Virus record (IMG/VR): IMGVR_UViG_3300033463_000081
Span: 1-64,000 of that record
DNA: 64,000 nt
DNA from: a virus
Taxonomy: Duplodnaviria > Caudoviricetes
Strand: one strand, 5' to 3'
The notes below the pieces were generated by a model. The model had not been told where the DNA came from. It saw only the letters and a program-made list of their open reading frames with translations, and made no database searches. This document shows positions 3,767 to 60,580 of the stretch, piece by piece. The position numbers were made by a program, and so were the translations under genes. Numbering within the stretch: the stretch's first letter is position 1; each line of letters opens with the position of its first letter.

Positions 3767-4020
3767 TTCTCCCACACTTTCTCCCACACTTGTTTGACGA
3801 AAACTGACTATTTTGGGCTTTTGAGCATGGTATTTTAACGGAAGAATACTGCTATATTCATTTAAGAAACCATTGATAAATCAAGGTTTTCTGATTGTTA
3901 TTCATAATTATCGTATAATTATGGCAGTTAATTACTTGTCAGCATATGTAACCCCTATACCCATTGAAATTACTGGGTATTTTGTCCTTTCGTTAGTGTT
4001 CTCCCACAGATTCTCCCACA
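3767..4020. other. attP site: four arm-type repeats around a palindromic core
   Basis: TTCTCCCACA at 3767, 3779, 3999, 4011 (two pairs, 12-bp period); CATAATTA-TCGTA-TAATTATG at 3903-3923; AT-rich; adjoins the integrase 3' end. Confidence 0.75.
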
Positions 4021-5204
4021 GGGAGTATGTACTGTGTGGCACGGATAGCTTCGGGTTCACCGCTGTCGGTGTATATATTGGACGTGGTGGAGATATCCTC
4101 GTGACCCATGAGGTACTTGGTCACTTCCACCGGGACGCCCAACCTCTGCATGTCCGTGCAGAATGTATGTCGAAGCGTATACAGGCTAATATCGGCTGAC
4201 AGCCTATGTCCGTTCAAAGGTTTGGATGGGTCAGCTGGGTCTGGGTATAACGGTGTACCGTCATACTTTACGTCCTTTTCGTCCGGGATATGGTTGTGTA
4301 TACGGATGGCTCCCATCTCTATGTCCATCAGCCGTGCGAACGAGCGCCAGTATGTATGTATGTTTTGGTCTGTCATCATTCCACCGCCGTATTTGGGAAA
4401 GAGAAAGTCATCCGGCTGTTTCTGTTCAACAAAATCACGCAACCGTGATATAAGGTCGATGTCATTGATGACGGTGTGGCGGATACCGGCGTTCGTCTTG
4501 GGCGTGGAAATCAGATTCGTGCCGGACTCTACGGCATCGTCTATCTTGACTATGGCTTTATCAAGGTCAAGCTGGCGCACACGGAGGGCGCGGACTTCGT
4601 TAGGGCGCATACCCGTGGCAAGCATGAAACGGAACAGATACCCACTCCGATGTTTCTCCGCCACCTTGAAGAATATCTCTTTCTCGTATGGCGTGAATGA
4701 GCGTCTGCTCCCTTTCTCCACGGCGGGCAGGTCGAGGTTCACAGCCGGATTGAACATGATGAGCCGCGAGACGTTTGCCTGCGTGAACATCATCTTGAGT
4801 ATCATCCGTATCTTTTGGGCGTGGGCGTAGGACATCCCCCTCTGAGCGTTGAGGATGCCACGGAGGTCTGTGTCTGTGACAGACGCAAGGCGCATCTCCC
4901 CTATCGCCGGAACGATGTGCAGGCGTGTCACGATATCGTAAGTTCGATAGGAGTTCTCCGACATAGTACCGGGCAACTTAGGCGCACCGGGCTTGCGGAC
5001 TCTCGGCTTGATATAATCTTTCAGCCATTCGTCCACCCAAGTCGATACTTTCATATCGGTTCCGATGTATCCGCTCTTGGCCGCGTCTATCTTCCGTGCC
5101 AGTCTGCGCTCCGCCTCGCGTTGCGTCTTCCCCGTTGCCTCGTAACGCTTGCCATTATAGGTTTCCGTTGCTCTCGGATAGTTGTACTTTTTCTTCTTAG
5201 CCAA
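3993..5204 (-). CDS. int: Tyrosine integrase (lysogeny)
   Basis: 403 aa; arm-binding N-terminus; GMRPNE, TPKT, LRHTF, LMGH, SNIY catalytic motifs. Confidence 0.95.
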   Translation of the reverse strand: MAKKKKYNYPRATETYNGKRYEATGKTQREAERRLARKIDAAKSGYIGTDMKVSTWVDEWLKDYIKPRVRKPGAPKLPGTMSENSYRTYDIVTRLHIVPAIGEMRLASVTDTDLRGILNAQRGMSYAHAQKIRMILKMMFTQANVSRLIMFNPAVNLDLPAVEKGSRRSFTPYEKEIFFKVAEKHRSGYLFRFMLATGMRPNEVRALRVRQLDLDKAIVKIDDAVESGTNLISTPKTNAGIRHTVINDIDLISRLRDFVEQKQPDDFLFPKYGGGMMTDQNIHTYWRSFARLMDIEMGAIRIHNHIPDEKDVKYDGTPLYPDPADPSKPLNGHRLSADISLYTLRHTFCTDMQRLGVPVEVTKYLMGHEDISTTSNIYTDSGEPEAIRATQYILPVGESVGEH

Positions 5205-7360: not shown

Positions 7361-8182
7361 ATGAAAAGTGCTCCCGAAATCATCACCCCGCAAATGGCCA
7401 AGAAGTATCTTGAGAAAAACACGAACAACCGCACTGTCCGCCCCAGCACTGTCAAGCGGTATGCGAATGACATGAAAAATGGGAACTGGCAGTTCACCGA
7501 TCAGGGCATCTCTTTCCATGAGGACGGCTCCCTGGCAAACGGTCAGCACCGCCTTCTCGCCATCATTGAGAGTAACACTCCCACAAAGATGTACGTTACC
7601 CGCGGAGTTCCCAACGGGTCTAGAATCTTTGACCGTGGCGCAAGCCGCTCTGCGGCCGATACCCTGACCATCTCCGGCTTTGGCGGAGAGATAGCCAACA
7701 ACAATCTCCTCGCAGGCGTTAATTTTCTGTTTAACTACAGCAAGGGTCGTGCGCCTACCGACACTATGATTGCCCGCTTTTGCAGCGAGAACCATGACCT
7801 CATCGTAAAGGCTACCGAACTCACCACCAGTGGCAGCGGAAAAGACAAGCCCGCAAGAAAAGCCCCCGTGGTTGCCGCTGCGTTCTGCGCCCTCTTCTGT
7901 GGCATAGACGAGGATGGGCTGCGTGATTTCTTCTCCGCCGTCAATACCGGGTTCATTGATGGGCGAGAGCAGTCCGCCGCCATCGTTCTTCGCAATTACC
8001 TCACGATGAAGTACGGACGTGCGTCATCCGATGAAAAGAAATACCTCTTTATGGCTACCACTCAGGCCATTTCCGATTTCACAAAAGGCAGGAGCCGGAC
8101 GAAATCGTACCCGGCCAATACCAAGCCCGTATTTTATAGGTACGTCAAGGCGGAGCTTCTCGACGATTACCAGATGTCATGA
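7361..8182 (+). CDS. ParB-like (GQHR motif) protein
   Basis: ITPQMAKKYLEKNTNNR...YANDM..G.W...G.L.NGQHRLLAI. Confidence 0.7.
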   Translation: MKSAPEIITPQMAKKYLEKNTNNRTVRPSTVKRYANDMKNGNWQFTDQGISFHEDGSLANGQHRLLAIIESNTPTKMYVTRGVPNGSRIFDRGASRSAADTLTISGFGGEIANNNLLAGVNFLFNYSKGRAPTDTMIARFCSENHDLIVKATELTTSGSGKDKPARKAPVVAAAFCALFCGIDEDGLRDFFSAVNTGFIDGREQSAAIVLRNYLTMKYGRASSDEKKYLFMATTQAISDFTKGRSRTKSYPANTKPVFYRYVKAELLDDYQMS

Positions 8183-25942: not shown

Positions 25943-26016
25943 ACGGACTTGGTGTAAAGGTAGCACACGGGACTTTGACTCCTGCGGTGGTGGTTCGACC
26001 CCACCAGTCTGTGCCA
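25943..26016 (+). tRNA. tRNA-Gln(TTG)
   Basis: ACGGACT/AGTCTGT acceptor, CT-TTG-AC loop, GGTGG-TTCGACC-CCACC, encoded CCA. Confidence 0.9.
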
Positions 26017-38444: not shown

Positions 38445-40073
38445 TTGCTTTATCAGCCCTCCAACATAACCCCCGATGAACTGAACGGCACGGGAACGGT
38501 GGACGTGACCGAGGACGTGGTGGTTTCGTGGATAGTCAACGGAACCACCCCCATGCGGGCTTACCAGATAACGTTCTATCAGAACAACGCCGCGTCCACT
38601 CAGGTATATACCACCGGGCAAGTACCGATTGCCCCATTTTGGGGAACAACATATGACGGCACAACAACGCCGTTCAGCGTCACACTGAGCGGACTCGCGT
38701 CCCACGGTCTTGCCAACGGGAACGAGTACAAGATGGTAATCACCCAATGGTGGTCACAAAACCAATATGTATCCCAAGTCACGGCGTCCATCATCGTGGC
38801 GAGAGCCAATCCCGTGGTGACTTTGGGTTCTTATGATGACCCTCTGACAGACAAGGAAGCCACGTTCACGGCGTCCTACTATCAAGCACAGGGAGACGGC
38901 ATCAAGTGGGTGCGCTGGCAGATAGCCTACGCAGACGATACCGCCAATCCCTTCGTGGACACGGGATATATCTACGGCACAGGCCAACTTCAAGTGGGCT
39001 ATGACGGATTCCTCACGGACAACACCTACGCCGTCAAATGCACGGTGGAATCGCAGAACGGAGTTCAGGGTACTACCGGGTGGGTGGACTTTGATGTGTC
39101 CTATACCCTCGCGGCGGCGGCGGGCGGAGCTACAGCCTGTCAGCTTGCGAACTCCTCCTCCGTGTGGGTCAGCTGGGATATGGTGCAGTCGGCGGACGGC
39201 TACTCCATCATGCGTCAGACGGTGGGAGAGAACCGCCTCATCAAGATAGCGGACGTGGAAGCCACAACGGGTCAGCTTCGTGACTACTCCGCACGGTCGG
39301 GCCAGACCTACATCTACTACGTCTTCCCAGAAGGTGCTTTGGCGTATCTGACCGAACCCATGATGACAGACCCCGTGAAAGTCCAATACTGGTATTGGAG
39401 CATCGTAGAGGCGGAGCCTGTGGAGGGAGAGAAGAACACCTACTCCGTCATCGCCGCCTACTACTTCAGATACAACGCATCCGAGGGTCAGTTCTCCAAT
39501 AACAACAACCCTCAGATATCTCAGAACTTCACACGGTATCCGACACGCCAAGGCTCCACCGCGAACTACAAGACGGGTACTTTGGCGGGATATATCGGAA
39601 CAATAGACCGCACGTCCGTGGAATATTCCGACACCATCTCCCAAAGCGAAGCTCTGTTCGCCCTATCCAATACGGAGAACGCCCTGTTCCTGCTCGACCC
39701 CAAGGGTCACTTCATGAGGATACACACGGCGGCGGCTACCACGCTACAGATAGACCACAAGAGCAGAGTTATGCCTCAGACGGTGACGGTATCGTGGGTG
39801 GAGACGGGCAGTACGGACGGAATACACCTCATCATGTACCCCGGCGGAGACTTTTACCCCATCGACCGCGTGATACTGACCACGCTCAGAGTCGATACGT
39901 CCACGGGAAAGCTGATATGGACTACCCCCAACGATTACGAGGGTACAGGCTCGGCTTTGTCGGTGAACGCCAACGGCGTTCTCGTGCAGAACACAAGCGG
40001 TTCGTACAACGCCGCCACCATGACGCTCGACAGCGCCACGGGCATCGTAACAGCCACGCTTCCCGACTCGTAA
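38445..40073 (+). CDS. Distal tail/baseplate protein (Ig/FN3-like)
   Basis: Beta-rich; position. Confidence 0.6.
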   Translation: MLYQPSNITPDELNGTGTVDVTEDVVVSWIVNGTTPMRAYQITFYQNNAASTQVYTTGQVPIAPFWGTTYDGTTTPFSVTLSGLASHGLANGNEYKMVITQWWSQNQYVSQVTASIIVARANPVVTLGSYDDPLTDKEATFTASYYQAQGDGIKWVRWQIAYADDTANPFVDTGYIYGTGQLQVGYDGFLTDNTYAVKCTVESQNGVQGTTGWVDFDVSYTLAAAAGGATACQLANSSSVWVSWDMVQSADGYSIMRQTVGENRLIKIADVEATTGQLRDYSARSGQTYIYYVFPEGALAYLTEPMMTDPVKVQYWYWSIVEAEPVEGEKNTYSVIAAYYFRYNASEGQFSNNNNPQISQNFTRYPTRQGSTANYKTGTLAGYIGTIDRTSVEYSDTISQSEALFALSNTENALFLLDPKGHFMRIHTAAATTLQIDHKSRVMPQTVTVSWVETGSTDGIHLIMYPGGDFYPIDRVILTTLRVDTSTGKLIWTTPNDYEGTGSALSVNANGVLVQNTSGSYNAATMTLDSATGIVTATLPDS

Positions 40074-40085
40074 GGGGGCGATGAA

Positions 40086-41393
40086 TTGTCAGATTATCAG
40101 AAATATCTCACGCAACTACGCGGGGAATTTACCAAGATAGCACGGCTTGAGTTCCTCAACCCTGACGGCACGGTGGCGTATGTCCTCGACAACAACGCCA
40201 CCAACCGAAGGTCTGGAGCGTTTCTCCAGTCGGGAACCATCTCCTGCAACAGACAGAACGGCAAGCGCCGCCAAGCATCCGTGACCCTCGTGAATCTCGA
40301 CAGTGAGTACGAATACGCCGTCAACCACATTTGGTTTGGACAGCAGATACGATTGTCAGAGGGAATCATACTCGATGACGGAACGGAGTATTACATCCCC
40401 CAAGGCGTATTTGAGATAGAGAATCCGCAGGAGGCATTGAAGCCTAGTCAGAACACCGTGACCTACAACCTCGTGGACAAGTGGGCGAACCTTGACGGTA
40501 CGCTCTTCGGAAACCTTGAGGACGTGTACGAGGTGCAGGCGGGAACCAACATCTTCTCAGCCATAGCCGCCCTCCTACGCCTCGACAAATACACGATGGA
40601 GAACAGCGGGACGCACCCGGTTGACCCCATCGCTCCCCTGTTCACGGACTACTACAATGACAAGTCCCAGACGCTGACGGACGGCACGGTGGTATCGCTC
40701 ATAGAAGCGCCCTACGATTTCCTATCCGAAAGCGAGGGGACTATGGCTGATGTAGTCCTCGGACTCAATGAGATGATAGCCGGGGACATAGGCTACAACC
40801 AAGTCGGACGGCTCGTCATCAATCCCTCTCAGGACGATATCCTCGACAACGATAAGCCTATCCTGTGGCAGTTCGAGGAAGGGGACAAGACATTCCTCAA
40901 TATCGAATCTTCACCCAAACCCACGAACGTATACAACGACGTTATCGTGGTGGGAGCCACATCGGACACCAACGAGACGGCAAAGGGCAGAGCGCAGAAC
41001 AGAGACCCGTCCTCGTCCACCTGCATCAGCCGTATCGGTCTGAAGACCATTCGCATCCCCATGCCGAACTACTACTCAGACCAGATGTGTCAGGACTACG
41101 CAGAGTGGCAACTGAAGAGATACTCGGTACTGTCCAAAGAGGTCACGATATCCTGCACACAGATGTTCCACATAGTCGAGAACGAACTCATCACGCTACA
41201 GAGACCAGACAAGCCCGGAAACCCGGCGGAACGGCATCTCGTCACGGGCTTTTCCCGACCGATAGGACAGACGGGAGCCATGACCATCAACTGCGTGTCG
41301 GTCAATGACATACCGCTGACTCTGATGCCGAGTACACAGACGGTCGTGTATTTCCTCTCCGATGAGATTTACGCTGCTGAAGCATACGCATAA
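40086..41393 (+). CDS. Baseplate hub/Tal-like tail protein
   Basis: YIPQGVF; VYNDVIVVG; position. Confidence 0.6.
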   Translation: MSDYQKYLTQLRGEFTKIARLEFLNPDGTVAYVLDNNATNRRSGAFLQSGTISCNRQNGKRRQASVTLVNLDSEYEYAVNHIWFGQQIRLSEGIILDDGTEYYIPQGVFEIENPQEALKPSQNTVTYNLVDKWANLDGTLFGNLEDVYEVQAGTNIFSAIAALLRLDKYTMENSGTHPVDPIAPLFTDYYNDKSQTLTDGTVVSLIEAPYDFLSESEGTMADVVLGLNEMIAGDIGYNQVGRLVINPSQDDILDNDKPILWQFEEGDKTFLNIESSPKPTNVYNDVIVVGATSDTNETAKGRAQNRDPSSSTCISRIGLKTIRIPMPNYYSDQMCQDYAEWQLKRYSVLSKEVTISCTQMFHIVENELITLQRPDKPGNPAERHLVTGFSRPIGQTGAMTINCVSVNDIPLTLMPSTQTVVYFLSDEIYAAEAYA

Positions 41394-41407
41394 AAGGGGG
41401 AAAAATT

Positions 41408-41962
41408 ATGATAGATTCCGTTATCGCGGGAACCGGCAACAGCCGATACCTGCGAACAAGCATCTCCGCAAGCACGACATGGGAAGACGCCCTGACGATG
41501 CTTCGTGCAGGCACGTTTCCCATCGACCTCGCGGGGATAAACCTCGCTGGGTTCACCACGCTCGGCACGGCACTGAACTCCGATACTCTGCTGAAAAGCG
41601 CCGTCATCACAGCACTTGGATTGGATGCAGACGCTACTCCCAGCGACGCATGGGAAGCAATCATCGAAATGATAGAGAACATGAGTACGATGACTGCTTC
41701 AATCACGCTATCCTCCGCATCATGGAGCGGAAGCAACCCATACGCTCAGACCGTGACCATATCAGGCTACACGGTGACGGCAAACACGAGGGTGGACATC
41801 ACCTGCAACTACTCCACAATAAACTCGCTGGCGCAGGACGGTGTGAGTGCCATCTACGCAGAGAACAACAGTGGGACAATCACAGTATATGCGGTCGGTG
41901 CGGCCCCAACGTCTAACATTACCGTAACGGCCACGATATATGAGACCAAAGCGGTAAGTTAA
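41408..41962 (+). CDS. Minor tail protein
   Basis: C-terminal domain WSGSNPYAQTVT...DGVSAI...GAAPTSNITV is paralogous to the next gene. Confidence 0.6.
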   Translation: MIDSVIAGTGNSRYLRTSISASTTWEDALTMLRAGTFPIDLAGINLAGFTTLGTALNSDTLLKSAVITALGLDADATPSDAWEAIIEMIENMSTMTASITLSSASWSGSNPYAQTVTISGYTVTANTRVDITCNYSTINSLAQDGVSAIYAENNSGTITVYAVGAAPTSNITVTATIYETKAVS

Positions 41963-41982
41963 AAGGACGGTGATGACAACAT

Positions 41983-42342
41983 ATGGCTTACACTAAGGAC
42001 ATTTCCCTTATCACGCTCCTGATGGCGAAGAACTATACGGAGAGATATGTCGAAGACCATCAGGGCATAGCGGCATCCGCAAAGGTAGGAACGCTGACAA
42101 TAGGAACCACATGGAGCGGAACCGACCCGTTTACGCAGAGCGTGACCACATCGTACACCACTACTGATAAGACGGTCGTGGACATTCAGCCAGACCCAAC
42201 CATCGTAGAACAACTGGTCAAAGACGGCGTATCCCAAATCATCATCAAGAATGACAACGGTGCGCTGACCGCCTACGCATTCGGCGCAAAGCCAAGCACA
42301 TCCCTTACAATATCTGTACTTTATTCGGAGGTGACTACTTAA
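41983..42342 (+). CDS. Minor tail protein (paralogue of the upstream C-terminus)
   Basis: WSGTDPFTQSVT...DGVSQI...GAKPSTSLTI. Confidence 0.6.
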   Translation: MAYTKDISLITLLMAKNYTERYVEDHQGIAASAKVGTLTIGTTWSGTDPFTQSVTTSYTTTDKTVVDIQPDPTIVEQLVKDGVSQIIIKNDNGALTAYAFGAKPSTSLTISVLYSEVTT

Positions 42343-42343
42343 T

Positions 42344-44386
42344 ATGTCTACTTTTGGCAACCCCATTGTAGCAAGCCCCAACCTGCTGCCGTCTATGGCT
42401 GATGTGTTCTCTACATCGACGGCGTACAGTGCGGGTCAATATGTATATTACGGCGGTAAACTGTACCAGTTCACGGCCAATCACGCAGCTGGTGCGTGGG
42501 TAGGAACGGACGCCACGGCGGTCAAGCTGGCGAACGACGTAAGTAACTTAAAGAGCGCAATTAGTGACCTTGACACCGCAGTAGACAACCTTGAGGCCAC
42601 TAAAGCAGACAAAGGCTCCGATGACCCCGAAGCGGCGGTCGGCACGGCTGAACAGGTCATGTCCGATGCGGGAGTGACCGACAAGGTGCCGTATCTGTTC
42701 CGCAAGTCGGCGGGTGACGGTGCGAACCGTGAGCGGGATTCCATTGTCGGCGGCACGGTGGCGTGGAATCAGCTTCTGCAAAAAAGCACCTTCTCTTATA
42801 CGGGCGGTGATTGCACAACGGACGCAGACGGGGTTGCGACCTTTACTGCTTCTGCGAGTGGGCAACAGGCATACAGAAGTGTTACATGTTACGCAACCCA
42901 TGTGATACTTGTATCCATTACCTTCAAAACAACTACAGCATCGAGCTACGTTAGGATGAGGGCGTTCGCCAACGATGTTGCTAGTATCGCAACGACATCT
43001 TGGCAGACTGGTTATTCCATGTATAAACCACCCAATAGCGGGAACCAAACTGTTGGCGTGATTGACCGCCGAGAAAGCGGGTGGGATGCAATAACCATCG
43101 ACCCGCCAATGGTGTTTGACCTCACCCAAATGTTTGGCTCCACCATAGCCGACTACATCTACACGCTTGAATCGACCGAAGCGGGTGCGGGAGTGGCCCT
43201 GTTCCGTTCCCTGTTCCCCGCCCCGTACTACGCCTACAACACAGGAGAACTGAAGTCCGTCACGGGTCTGTCGGCTCATGTCATGCGTGGGTTTAACCAG
43301 TGGGATGGTGAGTATGAAAAGGCCACAATCAACTGGACAACATACATCTTCACTCCCAACGCATCGGGGAGATGGTCGTCGAAGAATTATATCCCTGTAA
43401 TTCCCGACACCGCATATTATATCACCCATACGTCCAATAATGTTGTCTGCGGCTATACCGACAATCAAGGCAACGGTGGCAGGGCGTTGACCGTAAGCTC
43501 CCATCTTTTCACCGTTCCGTCCGATGTGCATTTCATCAAATTCGGCATCAATGAAACCGCACAGCCGACAGACGTTTGCATCAACATCTCCAACGCCGCT
43601 TTGAACGGCACATACGAACCCTATGACGGTCACAGCTACCCGCTTGACTCCGACCTTACTCTCCGTGGTATCCCCAAACTGGACGCAAGCAATAACCTGT
43701 ACTATGACGGCGACACCTATGCCGCTGACGGTACGGTGACAAGGAAGTATGCCATTGTTGATTTGGGGAGTTTGAGTTGGTCAACCACTTCTTCAGGGAA
43801 TCATTATGCGGGAATAGATAACCCACAAAAACTTGGAAATGCCGTGATTGCACACGCTGTATGCGGGAGGTATGTTGCGTCATCTCCAAGCGGATATGGG
43901 TCTATTGACAAGGCGTTTGCGATAGGAATGAATGGAACCAACAGCGTGTACATTCATGACAGCACATATGATAATGTCGATGCCGCCACATTCAAAACCG
44001 CAATGAGTGGTGTGTACCTTGTCTACGAACTCGCAACCCCGACAACCGAATCCGCTGACCCGTACAACCCCATTCAGATTGTAGACCCCAACGGAACGGA
44101 AGAATACGTTTCCACAGGCATCGTTCCTGTCGGGCACGATACGTTCTACCCCGAAAATGTGGCGGCGAAGATTGCGGGTCTACCTTGGAACTTTGCGAAT
44201 CTGATTGCCTACACCGAATCGGGATTCACTGCAAGCAAAGCCTATTCCGCAAACGATTTCCTTATCATCAACAATCAGCTTTACAAGGCCACAACGTCCA
44301 TCGCAAACGGTGCGACTATCACCGTAGGAACGAACGTCACGGCAACAACCATCGGTGAGCAAATCACCGCAATCCTTAATTCTTAA
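42344..44386 (+). CDS. Tail fibre/receptor-binding protein
   Basis: 680 aa; CBM5/12-like repeats at both ends (FSTSTAYSAGQYVYYGGKLY; FTASKAYSANDFLIINNQLY). Confidence 0.7.
   Translation: MSTFGNPIVASPNLLPSMADVFSTSTAYSAGQYVYYGGKLYQFTANHAAGAWVGTDATAVKLANDVSNLKSAISDLDTAVDNLEATKADKGSDDPEAAVGTAEQVMSDAGVTDKVPYLFRKSAGDGANRERDSIVGGTVAWNQLLQKSTFSYTGGDCTTDADGVATFTASASGQQAYRSVTCYATHVILVSITFKTTTASSYVRMRAFANDVASIATTSWQTGYSMYKPPNSGNQTVGVIDRRESGWDAITIDPPMVFDLTQMFGSTIADYIYTLESTEAGAGVALFRSLFPAPYYAYNTGELKSVTGLSAHVMRGFNQWDGEYEKATINWTTYIFTPNASGRWSSKNYIPVIPDTAYYITHTSNNVVCGYTDNQGNGGRALTVSSHLFTVPSDVHFIKFGINETAQPTDVCINISNAALNGTYEPYDGHSYPLDSDLTLRGIPKLDASNNLYYDGDTYAADGTVTRKYAIVDLGSLSWSTTSSGNHYAGIDNPQKLGNAVIAHAVCGRYVASSPSGYGSIDKAFAIGMNGTNSVYIHDSTYDNVDAATFKTAMSGVYLVYELATPTTESADPYNPIQIVDPNGTEEYVSTGIVPVGHDTFYPENVAAKIAGLPWNFANLIAYTESGFTASKAYSANDFLIINNQLYKATTSIANGATITVGTNVTATTIGEQITAILNS
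42541..42569 (+). repeat. Putative recombination site A (in the tail-fibre ORF)
   Basis: AAGTAAC-TTAAAGAGCGCA-ATTAGTGACC. Confidence 0.55.
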
Positions 44387-44405
44387 TTTTACGGAGGGTT
44401 AAACA

Positions 44406-44660
44406 ATGAAACTTGCCATTATCGAGTGCGTAAACGGGAACTATGTTGTGCGGGCCGAGGGCATCGCTTCTGTCGAAGCCGCCAAGACGCAGTACCACGG
44501 GAGAGCGCAGGCTCTTTGGAACGCTCCCGATGTGCTGACCGCCTACATCGCCATTGTCGATGAGCAGTTGGATGTGGTCGAGGGCATGAAAGAGTACATC
44601 CATCATGACCCGACTCCTGCTCCCGAACCCGAAGAGGAAGAGCCTGTCGAGGGAGAGTAA
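44406..44660 (+). CDS. Small acidic protein after the tail fibre
   Basis: GGAGG RBS. Confidence 0.65.
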   Translation: MKLAIIECVNGNYVVRAEGIASVEAAKTQYHGRAQALWNAPDVLTAYIAIVDEQLDVVEGMKEYIHHDPTPAPEPEEEEPVEGE

Positions 44661-44848
44661 TGGACTACACCGAACTGGTGCAGGAATTGCGGGGCAACAA
44701 TTCCCCGCTTACCGACAAGGCCGCTGACGCAATCGAAGAACTGATTGCTGACCTTGAACGTGCGGAAGACTATGCCGAAGCATGGGAAGGGCTTGCCAAC
44801 GATTGCAAGGAAAAGTTTGTGGCGTTTGTCGAGAAGATGAAGCGGTAA
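44660..44848 (+). CDS. Small coiled-coil protein (AADAIEEL family)
   Basis: TAATG coupling. Confidence 0.6.
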   Translation: MDYTELVQELRGNNSPLTDKAADAIEELIADLERAEDYAEAWEGLANDCKEKFVAFVEKMKR

Positions 44849-44903
44849 CGATTTGGCATGATAGTAAAACAGATTTCATGCTATCTATACGGAATCACGC
44901 ATA

Positions 44904-44941
44904 AACACTTTCGGAATTTCTTTATAGAAAAAGGGAAGTGT
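44904..44941. terminator. Hairpin
   Basis: AACACTT...TTTCT-TTAT-AGAAA...AAGTGTT. Confidence 0.45.
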
Positions 44942-44986
44942 TGCGGGCTTGGATTCGCAGTATGTGACGGGTGCAGATTCAAGCGC

Positions 44987-45015
44987 AAGTAACGATTCGG
45001 CCCATATTAGTGACC
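44987..45015 (+). repeat. Putative recombination site B
   Basis: AAGTAAC-GATTCGGCCCAT-ATTAGTGACC. Confidence 0.55.
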
Positions 45016-45033
45016 ATCCATACGCATACATAC

Positions 45034-45150
45034 ACACTTGTTTAATAGCGGTCTGACAAGTGTTTCCCCACGATTCGGGGAGTGACCGAGTGCTGACCGC
45101 TAAGTTGAACTCGTCATTGGGCGTGACGAGGGTAATATAAATAAAGCCCA
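45034..45150. ncRNA. Candidate pseudoknotted ncRNA or ssDNA structure
   Basis: Three stems plus an 8-bp loop pairing TAGCGGTC/GACCGCTA. Confidence 0.5.
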
Positions 45151-45151
45151 T

Positions 45152-45188
45152 AAGAAGAGAGGGACTACCCTCAATAGTCCCTCTTCTT
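45152..45188. terminator. Bidirectional hairpin at the RHH1 3' end
   Basis: AAGAAGAGAGGGACTA...TAGTCCCTCTTCTT. Confidence 0.7.
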
Positions 45189-45368
45189 CAGAAACTCATC
45201 AACAGCCCTCTGAATCACCCATGACCTTGGACGATCCTCTTCCTTGCAGAACTTGTCCAGTCGGGTGAGGATACTGGGCGGCATCGTGATATTGAGCCGC
45301 AGGAAAAGACCCTCATCTTCCTTGCTGACCTCAATGCCACGGAGCGACCTACCTCCGTTGATTCCCAT
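45171..45368 (-). CDS. Ribbon-helix-helix (CopG/Arc-like) protein 1
   Basis: RLNITMPPSILTRLDKFCKEEDRPRSWVIQRAVDEFL; AAGGAGG RBS. Confidence 0.85.
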   Translation of the reverse strand: MGINGGRSLRGIEVSKEDEGLFLRLNITMPPSILTRLDKFCKEEDRPRSWVIQRAVDEFLKKRDY

Positions 45369-45426
45369 ACAGACACCTCCTTATTGATAGATTAACATCC
45401 ATGTCAATGGAGATGTATGCGGACTC

Positions 45427-45453
45427 AACTTTACGAGGCCCAAATTAATAACC
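45427..45453 (+). repeat. Putative recombination site C
   Basis: AACTTTACGAGGCCCAAATTAATAACC. Confidence 0.6.
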
Positions 45454-45477
45454 ACTGACTTACACTGGTGTACACCG

Positions 45478-45804
45478 ATGGAGAAGAGCAACATGGCAGA
45501 GTACGTCAACCGTGAAGAAATTCTTGCAGAGTATGACCGACAGCATCAAGGGCCTGCGGGCGGGGCAAGAAAGATAATGGCAGAATGGCCCGCCGCTGAC
45601 GTTGCTCCTGTTCATCACGGAAAGTGGATACCCGCAAAAACGAGATTTGCCTCATTGGGTGGTGACCCAGTATGGCAGTGTTCAGAGTGCGGTAAAGGCA
45701 TCCACACTTACGGAATCGAACACGCATTATACAACGCCAACATCGCAGACGGACAATGGAAATACTGCCCCAATTGCGGCGCAAAGATGGACGGTGAGAG
45801 GTGA
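45478..45804 (+). CDS. Zn-ribbon phage accessory protein
   Basis: MAEYVNRE...ADVAPVHHGKWI...CSECG...YCPNCGAKMD (likely start 45493). Confidence 0.75.
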   Translation: MEKSNMAEYVNREEILAEYDRQHQGPAGGARKIMAEWPAADVAPVHHGKWIPAKTRFASLGGDPVWQCSECGKGIHTYGIEHALYNANIADGQWKYCPNCGAKMDGER

Positions 45805-45841
45805 TGCTCAGTGTACCCGGACTCGTTCCCCGTATGTGAGT

Positions 45842-45878
45842 AGAAGAGAGGGGCTACCCCTCAGTAACCCCTCTTCTT
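45842..45878. terminator. Bidirectional hairpin at the RHH2 3' end
   Basis: AGAAGAGAGGGGCTA...TAACCCCTCTTCT. Confidence 0.65.
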
Positions 45879-46046
45879 CAACCATTCATCAAGCGCACGT
45901 TGGATAACCCACGAGCGGTTGCGATCTTCCTCTTTCATGAATCTCTCCAATCGCTCACGGATGGAATTAGGCAAAGAGATATGCAAATCGGTAAACCCCG
46001 ACATATCTTCGATGCCCCTCAGATTGCGGCCTCCATTGATGCCCAT
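45861..46046 (-). CDS. Ribbon-helix-helix protein 2
   Basis: DLHISLPNSIRERLERFMKEEDRNRSWVIQRALDEWL; paralogue of RHH1. Confidence 0.85.
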   Translation of the reverse strand: MGINGGRNLRGIEDMSGFTDLHISLPNSIRERLERFMKEEDRNRSWVIQRALDEWLKKRGY

Positions 46047-46092
46047 CGGCAAACACCTCCTACCACTATTGTACGGCGGCTGTCAATGAGTG

Positions 46093-46130
46093 CCAGTGAT
46101 AGCCAGTGAAATCCAGTGATAGCCAGTATT
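46093..46130 (+). repeat. 10-bp tandem repeats (operator-like)
   Basis: CCAGTGATAG CCAGTGAAAT CCAGTGATAG CCAGTATT. Confidence 0.8.
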
Positions 46131-46131
46131 C

Positions 46132-46158
46132 AACTTTGAGAGGCCCAAATAAATTACT
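46132..46158 (+). repeat. Putative recombination site D
   Basis: AACTTTGAGAGGCCCAAATAAATTACT. Confidence 0.6.
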
Positions 46159-46185
46159 TGTGTTCAACCGAAAGGGGAGCTTTTT

Positions 46186-46683
46186 ATGGGTAATGATGAG
46201 AAGAAAATCGAATCTGTAAAGCTCCCCTCCGGCTGTGTTGGGCTGTGGGAGACTCCGACTATCGGAACAAAATCCTACCTGTACACGTCACCGGCAAACA
46301 CGATGGCGCAGAACCAAAAGGTCGTAGACCGAGAGAACTGCGCACTGTGGTGGCCATATGGGAAAGGTCACGCCGTCTGCGACCATGCGGACTCTGTTCT
46401 CCCCGGAGGGCTGTGGCGTGTTCAGGATATAACCGTAGAGGACAACGCCACGCTCACACTCCCAGACGGAACGAGGAAATACTACACCTGCATGGGCCTG
46501 CTCAGATGCAGACGGAGACCTCGTGACTACGCATGGAACAATGCGCCCTTCGCCCCAGTCGCAAAGGAAGACGTGGTGTGCATCTGCTGTGCCAACAACA
46601 GCGGCAGTGAAGTGTATGTCGCCTATTTCAAACACAATTTCACAATAAAATCAAGCTCAACCATTGAGAGTATAAAAAAATAA
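46186..46683 (+). CDS. Sortase-like protein (no membrane anchor)
   Basis: G....P.IG...LY, AVCDHAD, VVCICC spacing resembles the sortase His/Cys motifs. Confidence 0.45.
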   Translation: MGNDEKKIESVKLPSGCVGLWETPTIGTKSYLYTSPANTMAQNQKVVDRENCALWWPYGKGHAVCDHADSVLPGGLWRVQDITVEDNATLTLPDGTRKYYTCMGLLRCRRRPRDYAWNNAPFAPVAKEDVVCICCANNSGSEVYVAYFKHNFTIKSSSTIESIKK

Positions 46684-46704
46684 GGGGAGGGTTCCCCCTC
46701 CCCT
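46683..46704. terminator. Hairpin at the recombinase 3' end
   Basis: AGGGGAGGG-TTCC-CCCTCCCCT. Confidence 0.7.
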
Positions 46705-46705
46705 C

Positions 46706-47692
46706 TCACGCATACTTACGATAGGCGTTGCGCACGTTCTCCTTGCTTTGGTAGACGTATTCCATTGTGGTGTCCAGCTTGTCATGGCCGAGTACCGCCG
46801 CTACGTCCTGAATGGGCATACCGTTGTTGATGAGGTTCGTGGCCAACGTCCGGCGGAACTTATGCGGATGGACGCGCTCTACCCCGGACTCCGCGCCTAG
46901 CTGTCTGAGCATCCTTCGGACTCCACCGGGTTGTATACGCGCATCGGAACGGTTGATGAACAGCGCCTCGCAATCGTCTTTTCTCTTATTCAGATAGCGT
47001 TCCAGCATCATGGCGGTCACGCCGTCGAAGAACACCACGCGCTCCTTGTTGCCTTTGCCTCGGACTTTGCATTCAAAGTTCACAAGGTCGAGGTCGGAGC
47101 GGTTGAGGGAACACGCCTCGGAGATGCGGCATCCAGTAGCCAAAAGAAAGAAGATGATAGCCTTGTCTCTCGGATTACGGCATTTCTCTTTCAGCTTTTC
47201 TATTTCCGTATCGGAATACGGGGTCTTCACCTTCTTGGCGCATTTGATGGGTGCGAGATTAGCGCACGGATTATCTTTGAGCAGGCCCTCTTTCTGACAC
47301 CATCCGAAGAAAGAACAGTATACGCTCCTGTTCCCTTCCAATGTGGAGTCTGCAATCCCGCGCTCTTTCTCCTTGCCGAGATAAGAGCGGATGTGGAACA
47401 CGGTGATTTCCCTTACGGGGACATTGAGAGCGGAGAACAATCTTCTTAGCGTGTAGACAGACCTCGTGATGCTCTTTTCCGAGCATCCCTGCAATCTCTT
47501 CGTATCGCAGTATATGTCGAGCATTTCCTGCGCATCATTTGAGCCTGACTCGTTGGGGTGTTCCTCAACGGCATATGAGGACAGGTTCGCGGAGAGGATA
47601 TCAAGTACGGAGTTGATATCTTTCTCCAATAAAAAAGTCTTTAATTGTCTCTCTGTTTCTTTCAGCAATCGCTGTTTGGCAGTTACAGACAT
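46706..47692 (-). CDS. XerD-like tyrosine recombinase with N-terminal SAM-like domain
   Basis: TGCRISE, GKGNKER, HPHKFRR, LGH, MEY. Confidence 0.95.
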   Translation of the reverse strand: MSVTAKQRLLKETERQLKTFLLEKDINSVLDILSANLSSYAVEEHPNESGSNDAQEMLDIYCDTKRLQGCSEKSITRSVYTLRRLFSALNVPVREITVFHIRSYLGKEKERGIADSTLEGNRSVYCSFFGWCQKEGLLKDNPCANLAPIKCAKKVKTPYSDTEIEKLKEKCRNPRDKAIIFFLLATGCRISEACSLNRSDLDLVNFECKVRGKGNKERVVFFDGVTAMMLERYLNKRKDDCEALFINRSDARIQPGGVRRMLRQLGAESGVERVHPHKFRRTLATNLINNGMPIQDVAAVLGHDKLDTTMEYVYQSKENVRNAYRKYA

Positions 47693-47737
47693 TTTTCATA
47701 CAACCTCCAATCTTAGTATTAGGAAAGGACAGACAAC

Positions 47738-48223
47738 ATGGCATCTTATGAACTCGGACAAGTCGCAATCGTGAATAAAGGTGCATGGAGCAGTGCCACA
47801 AGCTATGTTCTGCTCAATACGGTGACGCACAACGGTGGCTCGTTCATGTGTATCTCCGCCAACACCAACAAGGAACCGGGCGTGGCTTCGGGATGGGCTA
47901 CTTACTGGGTAAACATGGCGAAGGGCATTAAGACCGTGAGCATCGTGGCTGATTCCACATCGACCGCTCATGCGGTGTTCACCATGTCGGACGGCATGAC
48001 CATTACGGGAACCACGTTCACCACATCTCCCGTGGCTGCTGGCTCCATCACGGATACGGAGATAACAAGCAACGGCATCTCACGCATAGCCAACGGAGCG
48101 GTGACGGCGGCGAAGCTCGGCTCGGACATCCTGCCTGCCAACGTGGGCATCAAGCATGGAAACCACAATCCTCCGACCACATCGGACATCTCTGACGGAC
48201 AGATATATCTGTACCACGCATAA
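47738..48223 (+). CDS. Minor tail/fibre-associated protein
   Basis: KGAWSSATSY..LNTVTHNGGSF (CBM-like); ANGAVTAAKL fibre repeat. Confidence 0.6.
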   Translation: MASYELGQVAIVNKGAWSSATSYVLLNTVTHNGGSFMCISANTNKEPGVASGWATYWVNMAKGIKTVSIVADSTSTAHAVFTMSDGMTITGTTFTTSPVAAGSITDTEITSNGISRIANGAVTAAKLGSDILPANVGIKHGNHNPPTTSDISDGQIYLYHA

Positions 48224-48236
48224 GGTGGTGTAGCTC

Positions 48237-49229
48237 ATGGGATGGCAGACTAACGACCCAGGCGGCTCGTATTCGTCCGTAGCCAGTATCACAAAAGCCA
48301 TGAACAAATACACCGTGGTCATCACGGTGAGCATGGCGCGGCTTACGAACAACGGCATTGCGTTCAAGTTCGTGCAGACCACATCCAAAGGCTCCTCCTC
48401 CACATACAAGCCCCCGGACTATATGGATTTCCGCGTGGGGAGCGACACCCGTTCTGAGAACTGGGGAACCGGCGGCGGAGAGCGGTACTATGTGAAAAAC
48501 TTGACGCTCTACTGGAGGGGTACACTCAACAAGAACTCGACCGTGAACGTGAAAGTGGGCGCTCACGATGCGGGAGACTCGGCGTTTGACCACGCTGTAT
48601 ACATCAACAAGGATGTGACAGGCCCGGACTACACATCCAAATACTCGCTGACTTTTAACGGCAACGGGAACAACAGTGGTTCCACAAGTTCCTTCAACGA
48701 TAAGACCTACGGCACTGAGATAATTATGCCCGAATGTGGGTATACAAAGACGGGCTACAACTTTGTAGGGTGGAACACAAACCAATCAGCAACAACGGCG
48801 CAGTATCAGCCCGGAGATTCCTATACCATCACAGCGAATGTCACGTTCTACGCCATATGGTCACAGATAACCTATACCGTCAGCTACAACGGCAACGGAG
48901 CGGACAGCGGAACAACAGAAGAACAGACGAAATACTGGGGCACACCCCTTACCCTTCAGAGCAACGGCTATACCAAAGCCAACTACACGTTCCAACACTG
49001 GAACACGGCGGCGGACGACAGCGGAACGTCCTACGCCGCAGGCGCATCGTACATAGACAACGCCGCCGTAACGCTCTACGCCATATGGAAGAAAAACAAT
49101 ATCCCCGTGTTCATCAGAAGCGGCAACGCCATCATCCAAGTGGAAAAGGCGTTCATAAATGTCGGCGGAACGATAAAGGAATGCACCGTGTATCAGAATC
49201 TCGGTGGGAATATCATCGTTTACCAGTAA
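48237..49229 (+). CDS. Protein with two Listeria-Bacteroides (InlB B) repeats
   Basis: YSLTFNGNG...TKTGYNFVGWNT...FYAIW repeated twice. Confidence 0.75.
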   Translation: MGWQTNDPGGSYSSVASITKAMNKYTVVITVSMARLTNNGIAFKFVQTTSKGSSSTYKPPDYMDFRVGSDTRSENWGTGGGERYYVKNLTLYWRGTLNKNSTVNVKVGAHDAGDSAFDHAVYINKDVTGPDYTSKYSLTFNGNGNNSGSTSSFNDKTYGTEIIMPECGYTKTGYNFVGWNTNQSATTAQYQPGDSYTITANVTFYAIWSQITYTVSYNGNGADSGTTEEQTKYWGTPLTLQSNGYTKANYTFQHWNTAADDSGTSYAAGASYIDNAAVTLYAIWKKNNIPVFIRSGNAIIQVEKAFINVGGTIKECTVYQNLGGNIIVYQ

Positions 49230-49240
49230 GGGGTGAGTGA

Positions 49241-50116
49241 ATGCTCAATGTAATCGACATATCCTCGTGGCAGACGGGCATGAACCTCGACACGATGTAT
49301 AAGCGGAACCCGGATTTGAACGGAGTCATCGTCAAGGTGACGCAAGGCACGTCCTATGTGAATCCCCCCGCAAAGGAATGGCTCGAATGGCTGATGTCCA
49401 AGAACAAGCCTTTCGGCGTGTATCATTTCCTTGACCTCTACGGAGGCGTGGCTGAAGCACAGCACTTCGTCAACACCATCCAGCCGTATATCGGCAAGGG
49501 AATCCTCGTCATAGACTACGAGGGCAACGCCGTCCGCAAGGGCGCAGGCTACCTCAAAGAATGTCTCGATGAGGTCTATCGGCTGACCAACGTCAAGCCG
49601 TTCGTCTACTGCTCACAGAGCATCACGCAGACCAACGGATTTGACAAGATAGCGGCGGCGGGATATCCGCTGTGGATGGCGCAGTACGCAGATTACAACC
49701 CCGTACACGGATTCTTGGAGAAGCCGTGGCAGAAAGGCTCGGTCAAACCGTTCGACAAATACTGGATGCACCAATATACTTCCTGCGGATATCTGAACGG
49801 ATGGGATGGGCGTCTGGACTTCGACCTCTTCTATGGAACGGAACTGGACTGGCGCAAGCTGGCGTACAGTGACATCGAACCCGACGTTCCCGTTACGCCA
49901 CTGAAGAAAGCCGACCCAAGCATATGCCTGCGTGTACTCAAGAACGAGTTTGGAGTTGGCACGGACAGAATCATACGCCTGCGTGAAGAGGGCTACGACC
50001 CAACCGATGTGCAGAAGACGCTGAACAGGCTGTTCATAGAGGCGAAGAACGCAAGAACCGCCATAGGCGATGACATGAGCTACCTGAACTCTATCCTTTG
50101 GATAATGAAATCTTAA
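49241..50116 (+). CDS. Endolysin, GH25 muramidase with a CW_7-like cell-wall-binding domain
   Basis: IDISSWQ, VKVTQG, IDYE, LWMAQY, HQYTS, DFDLF; C-terminal EFGVG..RI..L...GYDP..VQ. Confidence 0.9.
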   Translation: MLNVIDISSWQTGMNLDTMYKRNPDLNGVIVKVTQGTSYVNPPAKEWLEWLMSKNKPFGVYHFLDLYGGVAEAQHFVNTIQPYIGKGILVIDYEGNAVRKGAGYLKECLDEVYRLTNVKPFVYCSQSITQTNGFDKIAAAGYPLWMAQYADYNPVHGFLEKPWQKGSVKPFDKYWMHQYTSCGYLNGWDGRLDFDLFYGTELDWRKLAYSDIEPDVPVTPLKKADPSICLRVLKNEFGVGTDRIIRLREEGYDPTDVQKTLNRLFIEAKNARTAIGDDMSYLNSILWIMKS

Positions 50117-59405: not shown

Positions 59406-59615
59406 TTACGCCGCCCTCCTGTTCCACTTGGCAATCGCTCCCGCCGGGTCATGGCTCCAGTTGATGTAGCATCCACAGGGAACGCACCCGACCCATCCGT
59501 GGCGGAACATTCCCCGGAACTCTCTGACCTCAGACTTTCCGCCACAGTGCGGGCAGTTTTCTACATGTTCTCCGACGAGAACGAACGATGTGTCCTGTTT
59601 CTTTTTCTTGGACAT
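59406..59615 (-). CDS. Lar-like restriction-alleviation Zn-ribbon protein
   Basis: CPHCGG...V.C..CG...AIAKWNRR; start overlaps the recombinase stop. Confidence 0.55.
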   Translation of the reverse strand: MSKKKKQDTSFVLVGEHVENCPHCGGKSEVREFRGMFRHGWVGCVPCGCYINWSHDPAGAIAKWNRRAA

Positions 59616-60580
59616 CACTGTGCCTCCTTTCTGTTGAACACGTTGGCCACCGCCATTGCCGGAGCGTTCACACTGAAGCGGGCGGCGTATATTTTCGTTG
59701 TCGCAACACTGCTGTGGCCCATCGTCTCGGAGATAAGCTCCATCGGAACATCGTTCTCCAAGAGGACGGATGCGTAGCAGTGACGTGCTGCGTGGGATCT
59801 GCAGGATTTCTCCTCGCCCAGGACAGCCTTGGTGTAGTGCTTGATTCGCTCGGAAAGTTCTATTCTGGACATCGGATTCCATCCGCCCTGGGCGTTCACC
59901 GATCCGAACAGCCAATCATCATCGGAAACCCAAGAGGGACGAAGACCGCTCTCAAGGTACTCACGCACGGCGTTCTGAGATGCCTCGGAGAAGACCACGG
60001 CGCGGGGCTTGTCTCCCTTGGTGTCCTGCGGATACGCCACACCGTTCTCCCAGTCCAGGTCGCACAGCCGGAGCGAACGAATCTCGCTGTTCCGCAACCC
60101 GGACTGGAGAAGCATGGTGACCTCGGCTTTCTCACGCAGCCACTTGGAAGACCGTCTTCCGAACTTGGGCTTGTCGCAGGTGATCAGGGCTTCGGCGTCC
60201 TCGTCCGTGAGGACGTGTTCATAGGGTTTGTTGCGCTCCACGTTCAGCTTCTTCTTGGGAGGCATCAGGGTGTCCAGGAAGAACGGCTTGTCCACGATGC
60301 CACACGCTACGGCGAAGTTCGACAGGCAACGGATGTGCGTGAGGTAGAGAGCCATAGTGGTTATCTTCACATCGGTGTCAAGCTTGAACCGCATCACGGC
60401 TTCCACGCCGATGTCTTCCGCACCGCTGCGCTCCATGCTCTCTCGGAGCATTCGGTACGTCCGGGCGTAACTGCTGATGCTGTTCTCGGACAGCTCGTTA
60501 CGCTTCATGTTGTCCATGTACAGGCTCACAGCCCTGTCATACTTTTCAAACATCTTCTCGATGCCTCCTTTCTTCGTCAC
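59615..60580 (-). CDS. Third tyrosine recombinase
   Basis: SGLRNSE, TKGDK, HAARH, MGH, KIY. Confidence 0.9.
   Translation of the reverse strand: MTKKGGIEKMFEKYDRAVSLYMDNMKRNELSENSISSYARTYRMLRESMERSGAEDIGVEAVMRFKLDTDVKITTMALYLTHIRCLSNFAVACGIVDKPFFLDTLMPPKKKLNVERNKPYEHVLTDEDAEALITCDKPKFGRRSSKWLREKAEVTMLLQSGLRNSEIRSLRLCDLDWENGVAYPQDTKGDKPRAVVFSEASQNAVREYLESGLRPSWVSDDDWLFGSVNAQGGWNPMSRIELSERIKHYTKAVLGEEKSCRSHAARHCYASVLLENDVPMELISETMGHSSVATTKIYAARFSVNAPAMAVANVFNRKEAQ

Follow-up and report, generated by a model that had tools for sequence, protein, structure and literature searches.

Does the tail-fibre locus of a phage found in the bovine gut carry its own system for exchanging DNA, and at which sequences would such a system act? 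The phage is the virus record IMGVR_UViG_3300033463_000081 of IMG/VR (Duplodnaviria; Caudoviricetes), and the stretch analysed here, referred to as the window, comprises the first 64 kb of this 78,374-bp record, which CheckV rates as complete. At positions 42,344 to 47,692 the window contains a tail-fibre gene, two small units with a ribbon-helix-helix (RHH) regulator gene each and a gene for a Xer-like tyrosine recombinase, and four short related sites, A to D, lie within and between them. We propose, with moderate confidence, that these parts form a phage site-specific recombination module, consisting of the Xer-like enzyme, a docking site, two tandem cassettes and a heterospecific site A. 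The stretch is present in bovine-gut metagenome sequencing runs, and relatives of its RHH genes also occur in metagenome-assembled genomes of rumen Clostridiales and Eubacteriales. Cassettes and sites were compared across about 100 other phage loci (numbered L), and a metagenome scan for RHH units yielded 80 further loci. Joints at the level of samples were read from assembled contigs and unitigs of the runs (numbered X) and not from raw reads; runs X3-X8 share few sequence words with the window and were used for joints only.

The sites and the enzyme are as follows.

42541-42569: site A, ACTTAAA-GAGCGC-AATTAGT, in the reading frame of the fibre (NLKSAI), where its anchor meets its tip
44987-45015: site B, spacer GGCCCA, bounding cassette 1 on its outer side and the fibre module on the right, pairing with C
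45425-45452: site C, spacer GGCCCA, joint between cassette 1 and cassette 2, with cassette-internal flanks on both sides
46130-46157: site D, spacer GGCCCA, closing the array on its inner, recombinase-facing side, proposed primary docking site
46706-47692, - strand: 328-aa Xer-like tyrosine recombinase (PF00589, E=9e-38, with a SAM-like N-domain)

A first-pass annotation of the window, made from its letters alone, had listed four related sites on the + strand at 42541 (A), 44987 (B), 45427 (C) and 46132 (D), and all were found exactly there, with GGCCCA followed by an AT-rich arm common to B, C and D. C and D are identical at 24 of 28 nt, and their ungapped score of 20 exceeds the maximum of about 12-14 obtained from a shuffled null on the window alone; in the same window-only test the pairs A-B (score 10) and B-C (score 12) stayed at the level of chance. 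Profiles from other loci were more discriminating. The profile of the 3'-type site, built without the window, placed A at the top of both strands with 26.3 bits against 18.5 for the highest shuffle, and only two positions on both strands of the 64-kb window reached 15 bits or more. The profile of the 5'-type site ranked D first (23.9 bits) and C second (12.1 bits), and B was recovered as the partner of C, having the arm and an identical spacer. By these comparisons A, B, C and D are all assigned to one site family. A scan of IMG/VR with the exact C/D motif returned two hits without likeness to the proteins of the window, which were taken as chance.

Across the loci, members of the family have 7-bp inverted arms (near ACTTAAA and TTTAAGT) around a 6-nt spacer, and clean copies are 7+6+7 dyads such as ACTTAAA-GGTCAC-TTTAAGT. 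Near-perfect dyads of this kind stand beside recombinase genes in L018, L019 and L123, and also at cassette ends, for example in L083. Inverted arms around a 6-nt centre that matches between partners are the standard anatomy of a tyrosine-recombinase core site. Read in the orientation of the RHH gene, the upstream copy has the form nTGATTTAAAG, about 6 variable nt, CTCAAAGTTG, and lies 55-111 nt before the RHH start codon in about 70 of 93 units; a second copy, in which TTAAAG is followed by the same variable bases and TTTAAGT, lies 28-505 nt past the RHH stop codon. The pairing of spacers was scored by an anchored 6-mer, an exact 9-mer being too strict in that its last bases belong to the flank. 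The arm with an identical 6-mer was present at both ends of 48 of the 68 units, and counted by distinct spacer the pairing held in 18 of 25 classes; a control with spacers taken from other classes gave 2.1%. Matches of at least 13 of 15 nt were found in 24 of the 68 own pairs and in 3 of 680 control pairs. The spacer GTGTCC occurs in empty sites (L123, L020) and also flanks RHH cassettes (L012, L088). Tandem arrays with a single spacer, as between B and D, are found also in L056, L090 and L093, and arrays of this system hold one to four cassettes.

The two units bounded by B, C and D comprise the following features.

45016-45157, + strand: cargo of cassette 1, a structured non-coding element with no credible open reading frame family
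45158-45184: hairpin 1 (terminator scan), a two-way terminator overlapping the end of RHH1 and near-identical to hairpin 2
45171-45368, - strand: RHH1, 65 aa, CopG/Arc-type ribbon-helix-helix protein (Pfam RHH_1, 28.6 bits, cut-off 20.5)
45478-45804, + strand: cargo of cassette 2, a 108-aa Zn-ribbon protein (weak Zn-ribbon and Lar-like matches)
about 45850-45880: hairpin 2 (terminator scan and unit alignment), preceding RHH2
45861-46052, - strand: RHH2, 63 aa, paralogue of RHH1 (Pfam RHH_1, 23.9 bits, cut-off 20.5)
46084-46128: three to four tandem 10-bp repeats, CCAGTGATAG-like (repeat family D6), upstream of RHH2, candidate operator

Cassette 1 thus extends from B to C, with the structured non-coding stretch, a hairpin and RHH1, and cassette 2 from C to D, with the Zn-ribbon gene, a hairpin and RHH2; read on the RHH strand, D stands on the promoter side of RHH2. 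The RHH1 and RHH2 proteins share 65% identity, and paralogy extends from end to end of the two units, each composed of a hairpin, the RHH gene, its upstream region and C or D. Pfam matches, the terminator scan and the alignment of the units in this way bear out the two RHH genes, the tyrosine recombinase and the hairpins as they had first been annotated.

Relatives of the RHH proteins number 172, many of them on very short contigs. One 65-aa RHH protein, P0154, occurs in identical form in at least six different phage backgrounds, always as the lone opposite-strand gene of a late operon and mostly right behind a large fibre-type gene. These phages are otherwise unrelated: the sole DNA they have in common is a cassette of about 335 bp, 95-99% identical, with sharp ends that fall at the two sites. 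By this comparison the RHH unit is a mobile cassette that moves between phages, and the comparative loci likewise uphold the earlier description of B, C and D as direct two-arm sites with a 6-nt spacer that bound mobile units of RHH gene and cargo. Where other loci carry extra cargo, it is usually a small protein encoded on the strand opposite the RHH gene. Among the cassettes with a known cargo family (L056, L096, L102, L109, L122), four carry DUF6275 and one DUF4406; the remaining cargo proteins elsewhere belong to no known family, and a PADLOC search of RHH proteins and cargo gave no defence-system match. In cassette 1 the Rfam 6A RNA model matches 45106-45156 with 38.4 bits, below its threshold of 41.2, and the central part of this cargo is conserved in a related cassette of L033 (6387-6451). 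A DUF3800-VIII RNA in the same L033 cassette exceeds its threshold (42.6 against 40.2). It may be that some orphan RNA motifs described from metagenomes are carried as cargo by phage cassettes.

The RHH genes differ in their upstream regions. The CCAGTGATAG-like repeats before RHH2 coincide in part with a promoter-like site of the - strand (46096-46068); before RHH1 there is, instead of 10-bp repeats, a palindrome around TTGAC at about 45390-45412. The candidate operators would thus differ between the two paralogues. The RHH protein was also considered as a reader of the spacer, and this was rejected since RHH1 and RHH2 share a spacer yet differ in the DNA-reading strand. A DNA pattern taken from the RHH promoter region was likewise abandoned, as it gave eight chance hits and one real one.

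If the sites are active, relatives should differ from the window at these positions, as the first-pass annotation had foreseen, and alignment of related contigs places the changes of content there. In L011, the closest relative, whose recombinase is 98% identical, the homology with the window (95.7%) breaks off within A, at 42562, and is restored within D, at about 46141-46147. The same two joints (42562 and 46147) recur in a contig from another study, run X3. Unitigs of run X1, the probable source sample, branch at 44995/44996 in B, 45432/45433 in C and 46147/46148 in D. In run X4 unlike DNA is joined at 44989, in B, with a divergence in D; contigs of X4 and X5 part from the window in or near D, at 46147 and 46159, so that in these two samples the B side or the RHH2 unit adjoins unlike DNA. 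Between them, the relatives and the four metagenome runs place mosaic joints in A, B, C and D. Run X1 also holds a two-base variant of C (AC to GA at 45433-45434). A further X1 contig, at about half depth, joins 45484 to 45796, which points to a co-occurring variant with the same flanks in which other DNA, or nothing, takes the place of the Zn-ribbon gene; the uncovered interval 45478-45711 in this run is not usable as evidence.

L011 also bears on what belongs to the array and what to its platform, through the following gene.

46186-46683, + strand: 165-aa protein of no known family, member of the conserved platform

The gene order in L011 is fibre, 79-aa gene, 54-aa gene, 165-aa gene and recombinase, with no RHH cassettes, and its 165-aa protein is 97% identical to that of the window (69% in L006). 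The 165-aa gene and the recombinase, kept in this cassette-free relative, are therefore best taken as a conserved platform and not as a cassette. The same layout had been thought to repeat after B, C and D; this holds for the first two units, which are cassettes, and not for the third (D, the 165-aa gene and the recombinase), which is the platform.

Site A differs from the others in lying within a gene.

42344-44386, + strand: tail-fibre gene, 680-aa open reading frame with a CBM_5_12-like N-terminal anchor followed by a variable receptor-binding part

The Pfam CBM_5_12 match covers residues 22-53 of the fibre, and in the comparison of the fibre gene with that of L011 the first 876 nt are 95.7% identical and the remainder is unrelated. 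A codes for NLKSAI where the conserved N-terminal part of the fibre gives way to its variable remainder. Other cassette-bearing phages have similar sites in their fibre genes, within N-terminal contexts that show no other likeness to one another. Codon use was examined in LKSA motifs collected by the protein motif alone: the fibre motifs have the rare Leu codon TTA in 18 of 20 cases and TTA-AAG-AGC in 17 of 20, against a background of 8.9% TTA among Leu codons in the same loci, and LKSA in non-fibre proteins uses TTA in none of 5. This bias implies that TTAAAGAGCGC, which comprises one arm and the spacer, is constrained as DNA, and we take it to be conserved at the DNA level in fibre genes. 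A reading of the TTAAAG in A as a frameshift heptamer was ruled out, as the preceding base varies. Because the spacer of A is GAGCGC and that of B, C and D is GGCCCA, recombination between A and B is not expected, and with it falls the circle of about 2.45 kb that the first-pass annotation had derived from this pair; A appears to be an in-frame site at the anchor/tip joint.

The 328-aa recombinase has core-binding and catalytic domains and no arm-binding domain, and alignment with the XerA structure 4a8e shows the catalytic R, K, HxxR, H and Y in place (GCRISE, KGNKER, HKFRRT, LGH, MEYV). Its scores lie below the cut-offs of the models for XerC (170.6 against 335), XerD (148 against 329.6), archaeal XerA (204 against 220) and IntI (TIGR02249, 53.7 bits against 265; NF011946, 32 against 435). 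The enzyme family has more than 7,000 hits, with the best among the matches listed at 52-59% identity. In loci selected by the enzyme, a site lies within 550 nt of the enzyme gene in 6 of 8 (L011, L012, L018, L019, L020, L123); the corresponding distance between D and the recombinase gene in the window is 540 nt. Approached from the RHH genes, a homologue (37-51% identical) is found within about 1 kb in 8 of the 80 RHH loci, or in 7 of the 42 that have at least 1.3 kb of upstream flank, and in all 10 linked cases (the 8 loci, L012 and the window) the enzyme stands on the promoter side of the RHH gene. Judged by these arrangements the recombinase is linked to the sites, and the neighbouring 328-aa enzyme is their probable catalyst. 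In the comparison with L006 (20216-20264), in which the 165-aa gene directly precedes a 161-aa gene with neither recombinase nor RHH gene, the recombinase gene of the window is a clean insertion of about 1.0 kb (about 46702-47726), with the 165-aa gene's terminator on one side and the ribosome-binding site of the 161-aa gene on the other. Given this clean difference and the quite different modules (lysis, replication, lysogeny) in which homologues of the enzyme are placed in other phages, the recombinase gene may itself be mobile. Near the recombinase, L012 and L014 seemed to differ, but their DNA is identical and the difference came from gene calling alone.

Among published systems the one nearest to this module is the Rin shufflon, known from prophages of Bifidobacterium (and Eggerthella), in which a Xer-like phage recombinase lies beside a receptor-binding-protein locus, with one crossover site within the gene at the joint of its constant and variable parts and a direct one after its 3' end; Rin inverts the DNA between inverted rix sites (TTCCCTAACCC) and so chooses among stored tips of about 100 aa (Mavrich et al. 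2018, PMC6109161). Both systems have a phage Xer-like enzyme without arm-binding domain at the fibre locus, a short in-frame site at the constant/variable joint of the fibre and a direct one just behind the gene. The sites of the window differ from those of Rin in that all are direct, have another sequence, are accompanied by no stored tips and bound cassettes of RHH gene plus cargo, and its relatives vary by replacement and insertion, not by inversion. The array had initially been called integron-like, which can be kept as an analogy only. A tandem array of small mobile cassettes beside a recombinase and a primary site, with a free form that would be circular, is common to both; in contrast to integrons, however, the enzyme is far under the IntI cut-offs, the sites are 20-bp double-strand dyads and not folded attC hairpins, the cassettes bring a regulator gene along with hairpins of terminator type and promoter-like elements, and the arrays are short, with a phage late operon as platform.

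Modules bounded by Xer-type core sites also move without an integrase of their own in the pdif modules of Acinetobacter plasmids and in integrative mobile elements exploiting Xer (IMEX) such as CTX-phi; these use the host XerC/XerD and 28-bp dif-like sites, and pdif pairs are inverted. Many cassettes described here likewise have no integrase of their own, whereas their sites are unlike dif, their pairs direct and their spacers cassette-specific, and a phage enzyme is often adjacent. In engineered recombinase-mediated cassette exchange, heterospecific lox or FRT sites with the same arms and unlike spacers do not delete the DNA between them and cross over with like sites. Site A (GAGCGC) together with the array sites (GGCCCA) resembles two such heterospecific sites around the fibre tip and may be a natural use of this principle, of which the lox/FRT version is a laboratory design. 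Neither RHH mini-cassettes nor this site turned up in searches of the literature.

The module may be envisaged to work as follows. A small Xer-like recombinase would act beside a docking site of a widespread family, in a phage of rumen Clostridia type. A free cassette would be a circle with one site, placed between the RHH regulator gene and the small cargo, and integration of two such cassettes in tandem at the docking site would give the direct sites D, C and B with their common spacer GGCCCA. Recombination among D, C and B would release circles of 705 and 438 bp or permit the uptake of further cassettes. The unlike spacer of A would block its recombination with B, C and D and so protect the tip from deletion, and a crossover of A with a like site in another phage would exchange the tip module between A and the array. 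The RHH protein would probably regulate itself and control the neighbouring gene.

A number of observations weigh against this proposal. Some 35 of the 42 RHH loci with enough flank have no such recombinase nearby, and a 96%-complete cassette-bearing phage has only an ordinary integrase; the homologues in L125 and L126 are placed in other gene modules, with no site nearby. The recombinase had been described as dedicated to these sites at the outset, and the recurrence of a Xer-like enzyme beside them agrees with this, but its absence from the vicinity of most RHH cassettes elsewhere does not. A plain scan for the ideal dyad passed A and failed B, C and D. The invariant cassette-internal arm, CAAAGTTG, is offset by about 2 nt from the ideal dyad and the outer arm of B is poor, which together make the geometry of cutting uncertain. 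The docking position of L011 is a degenerate empty site with a degenerate spacer. Among the assembled contigs of the runs, without recourse to raw reads, no circle, deletion or other recombination product was found. The units that enter the statistics are partly kin by descent.

The first of these points would be better accommodated if the sites were real and the catalyst acted in trans, being a host Xer-type enzyme, an ordinary phage integrase or the recombinase of a co-infecting phage, while the local recombinase did another job, such as resolving genome dimers. Enzyme homologues in replication and lysogeny modules without a site nearby, and two more tyrosine recombinases in the phage of the window, could be cited on the same side. 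Such a catalyst would leave no reason for a site to lie so close to the enzyme gene in most enzyme-selected loci, or for the enzyme to keep to one side of the RHH gene in every linked case, and the sites are by inspection unlike a 28-bp dif with 11-bp arms; we consider it quite unlikely. Also unlikely, though it deserves a hearing, is that the motif is a regulatory or boundary element (a late promoter, operator or terminator signal), spread by homologous or microhomology-mediated recombination with the recombinase as a passenger, on the model of what has been proposed for the promoter-stem-loop cassettes of T4-type phages. Such an element would suit the position of the motif, which invariably has a terminator hairpin or an RHH promoter on one side and the ribosome-binding site of the following late gene on the other; it would also suit the hairpins of terminator type and the promoter-like -10 elements of the cassettes (the latter seen by inspection of the alignment) and the invariant CAAAGTTG block, which is outside any dyad. 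It does not explain, however, a 6-nt centre that is free between cassettes yet identical at both ends, the 7+6+7 dyads beside recombinase genes or the DNA-level conservation within a coding region; the twelve common bases are few for homologous recombination, and a promoter consensus scan gave no sigma-70 type match in the motif, so that C and D were rejected as promoters.

A Xer-like recombinase at a fibre locus, with sites inside and behind the fibre gene, would equally be expected of an inversion switch of Rin type that flips alternative fibre tips in phase variation. All four sites are direct, though, with no inverted site or stored alternative tip nearby, and the few profile hits in the window, together with an arm-pattern scan that found only A, agree with the first-pass annotation in setting the locus apart from inverting shufflons. 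Relatives differ by replacement, and no inversion was seen among relatives or contigs. L018 was ruled out as such a switch by the unlike spacers of its only inverted pair and by a product that would have a 26-aa tail. We regard inversion at this locus as very improbable. Chance together with local tandem duplication, whereby C and D would lie in a duplicated RHH unit and A and B would be look-alikes, can draw on the chance-level scores of A-B and B-C in the window alone and on the paralogy of the two RHH units along their whole length. It is contradicted by the profiles from other loci, which rank A and D top in the window, by the pairing of spacers, by the same layout in about 100 loci and by the mosaic joints of independent samples that lie in the sites, and is hardly credible.

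The genes around the module complete the picture of the locus. Behind the fibre gene lie the following.

44406-44848, + strand: two small genes (open reading frames), 84 aa and 62 aa

Homologues of the 84-aa protein stand behind the fibre genes of relatives (L011, L012, L055 and L092), and searches of Pfam and PHROG gave no family for either small gene. The 328-aa recombinase sits between the fibre and the lysis genes, and beyond it come the 161-aa fibre-like protein, a Flg_new repeat protein and a GH25 lysin. Between the last two, L011 has an IS605-family TnpB-like gene (7378-8139; OrfB_IS605, Cas12f-like TNB), and the window has no such gene at the corresponding position. A DNA search of cultured phages with positions 40000-50000 gave zero matches, and scans of IMG/VR with the recombinase, 161-aa and 165-aa proteins returned merely one or two relatives. 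The window encodes three tyrosine recombinases in all (3993-5204, 46706-47692, 59615-60580); of the other two, the 403-aa protein is by size alone a candidate lysogeny integrase, and the 321-aa protein is 29% identical to the 328-aa enzyme. A tRNA-Gln (anticodon UUG) lies at 25943-26016, within the phage structural region.

The module proposed here, with its enzyme, docking site, cassettes and heterospecific site, bears on a wider matter, as mosaic fibre loci are usually credited to homologous or illegitimate recombination and this locus points to a dedicated enzyme-and-site system. If the proposal is true, it would explain both the sharp anchor/tip joints in fibre genes and the presence of identical small genes in unrelated phages, would extend the one published fibre system based on a tyrosine recombinase, Rin, to a mode of integration and exchange with cassettes of its own, and may account for the breaks of metagenome assemblies at these regions. 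More tentatively, and with some doubt, we suggest that the sites serve as a community-wide plug and socket of rumen phages, through which unrelated phages would take up mini-cassettes of regulator plus cargo and swap fibre tips at the in-frame GAGCGC site, unlike spacers preventing mutual deletion; recombinase-mediated cassette exchange would then have a counterpart in nature. The module itself, if it works as proposed, would be a concrete means by which host range turns over in the viromes of gut and rumen.

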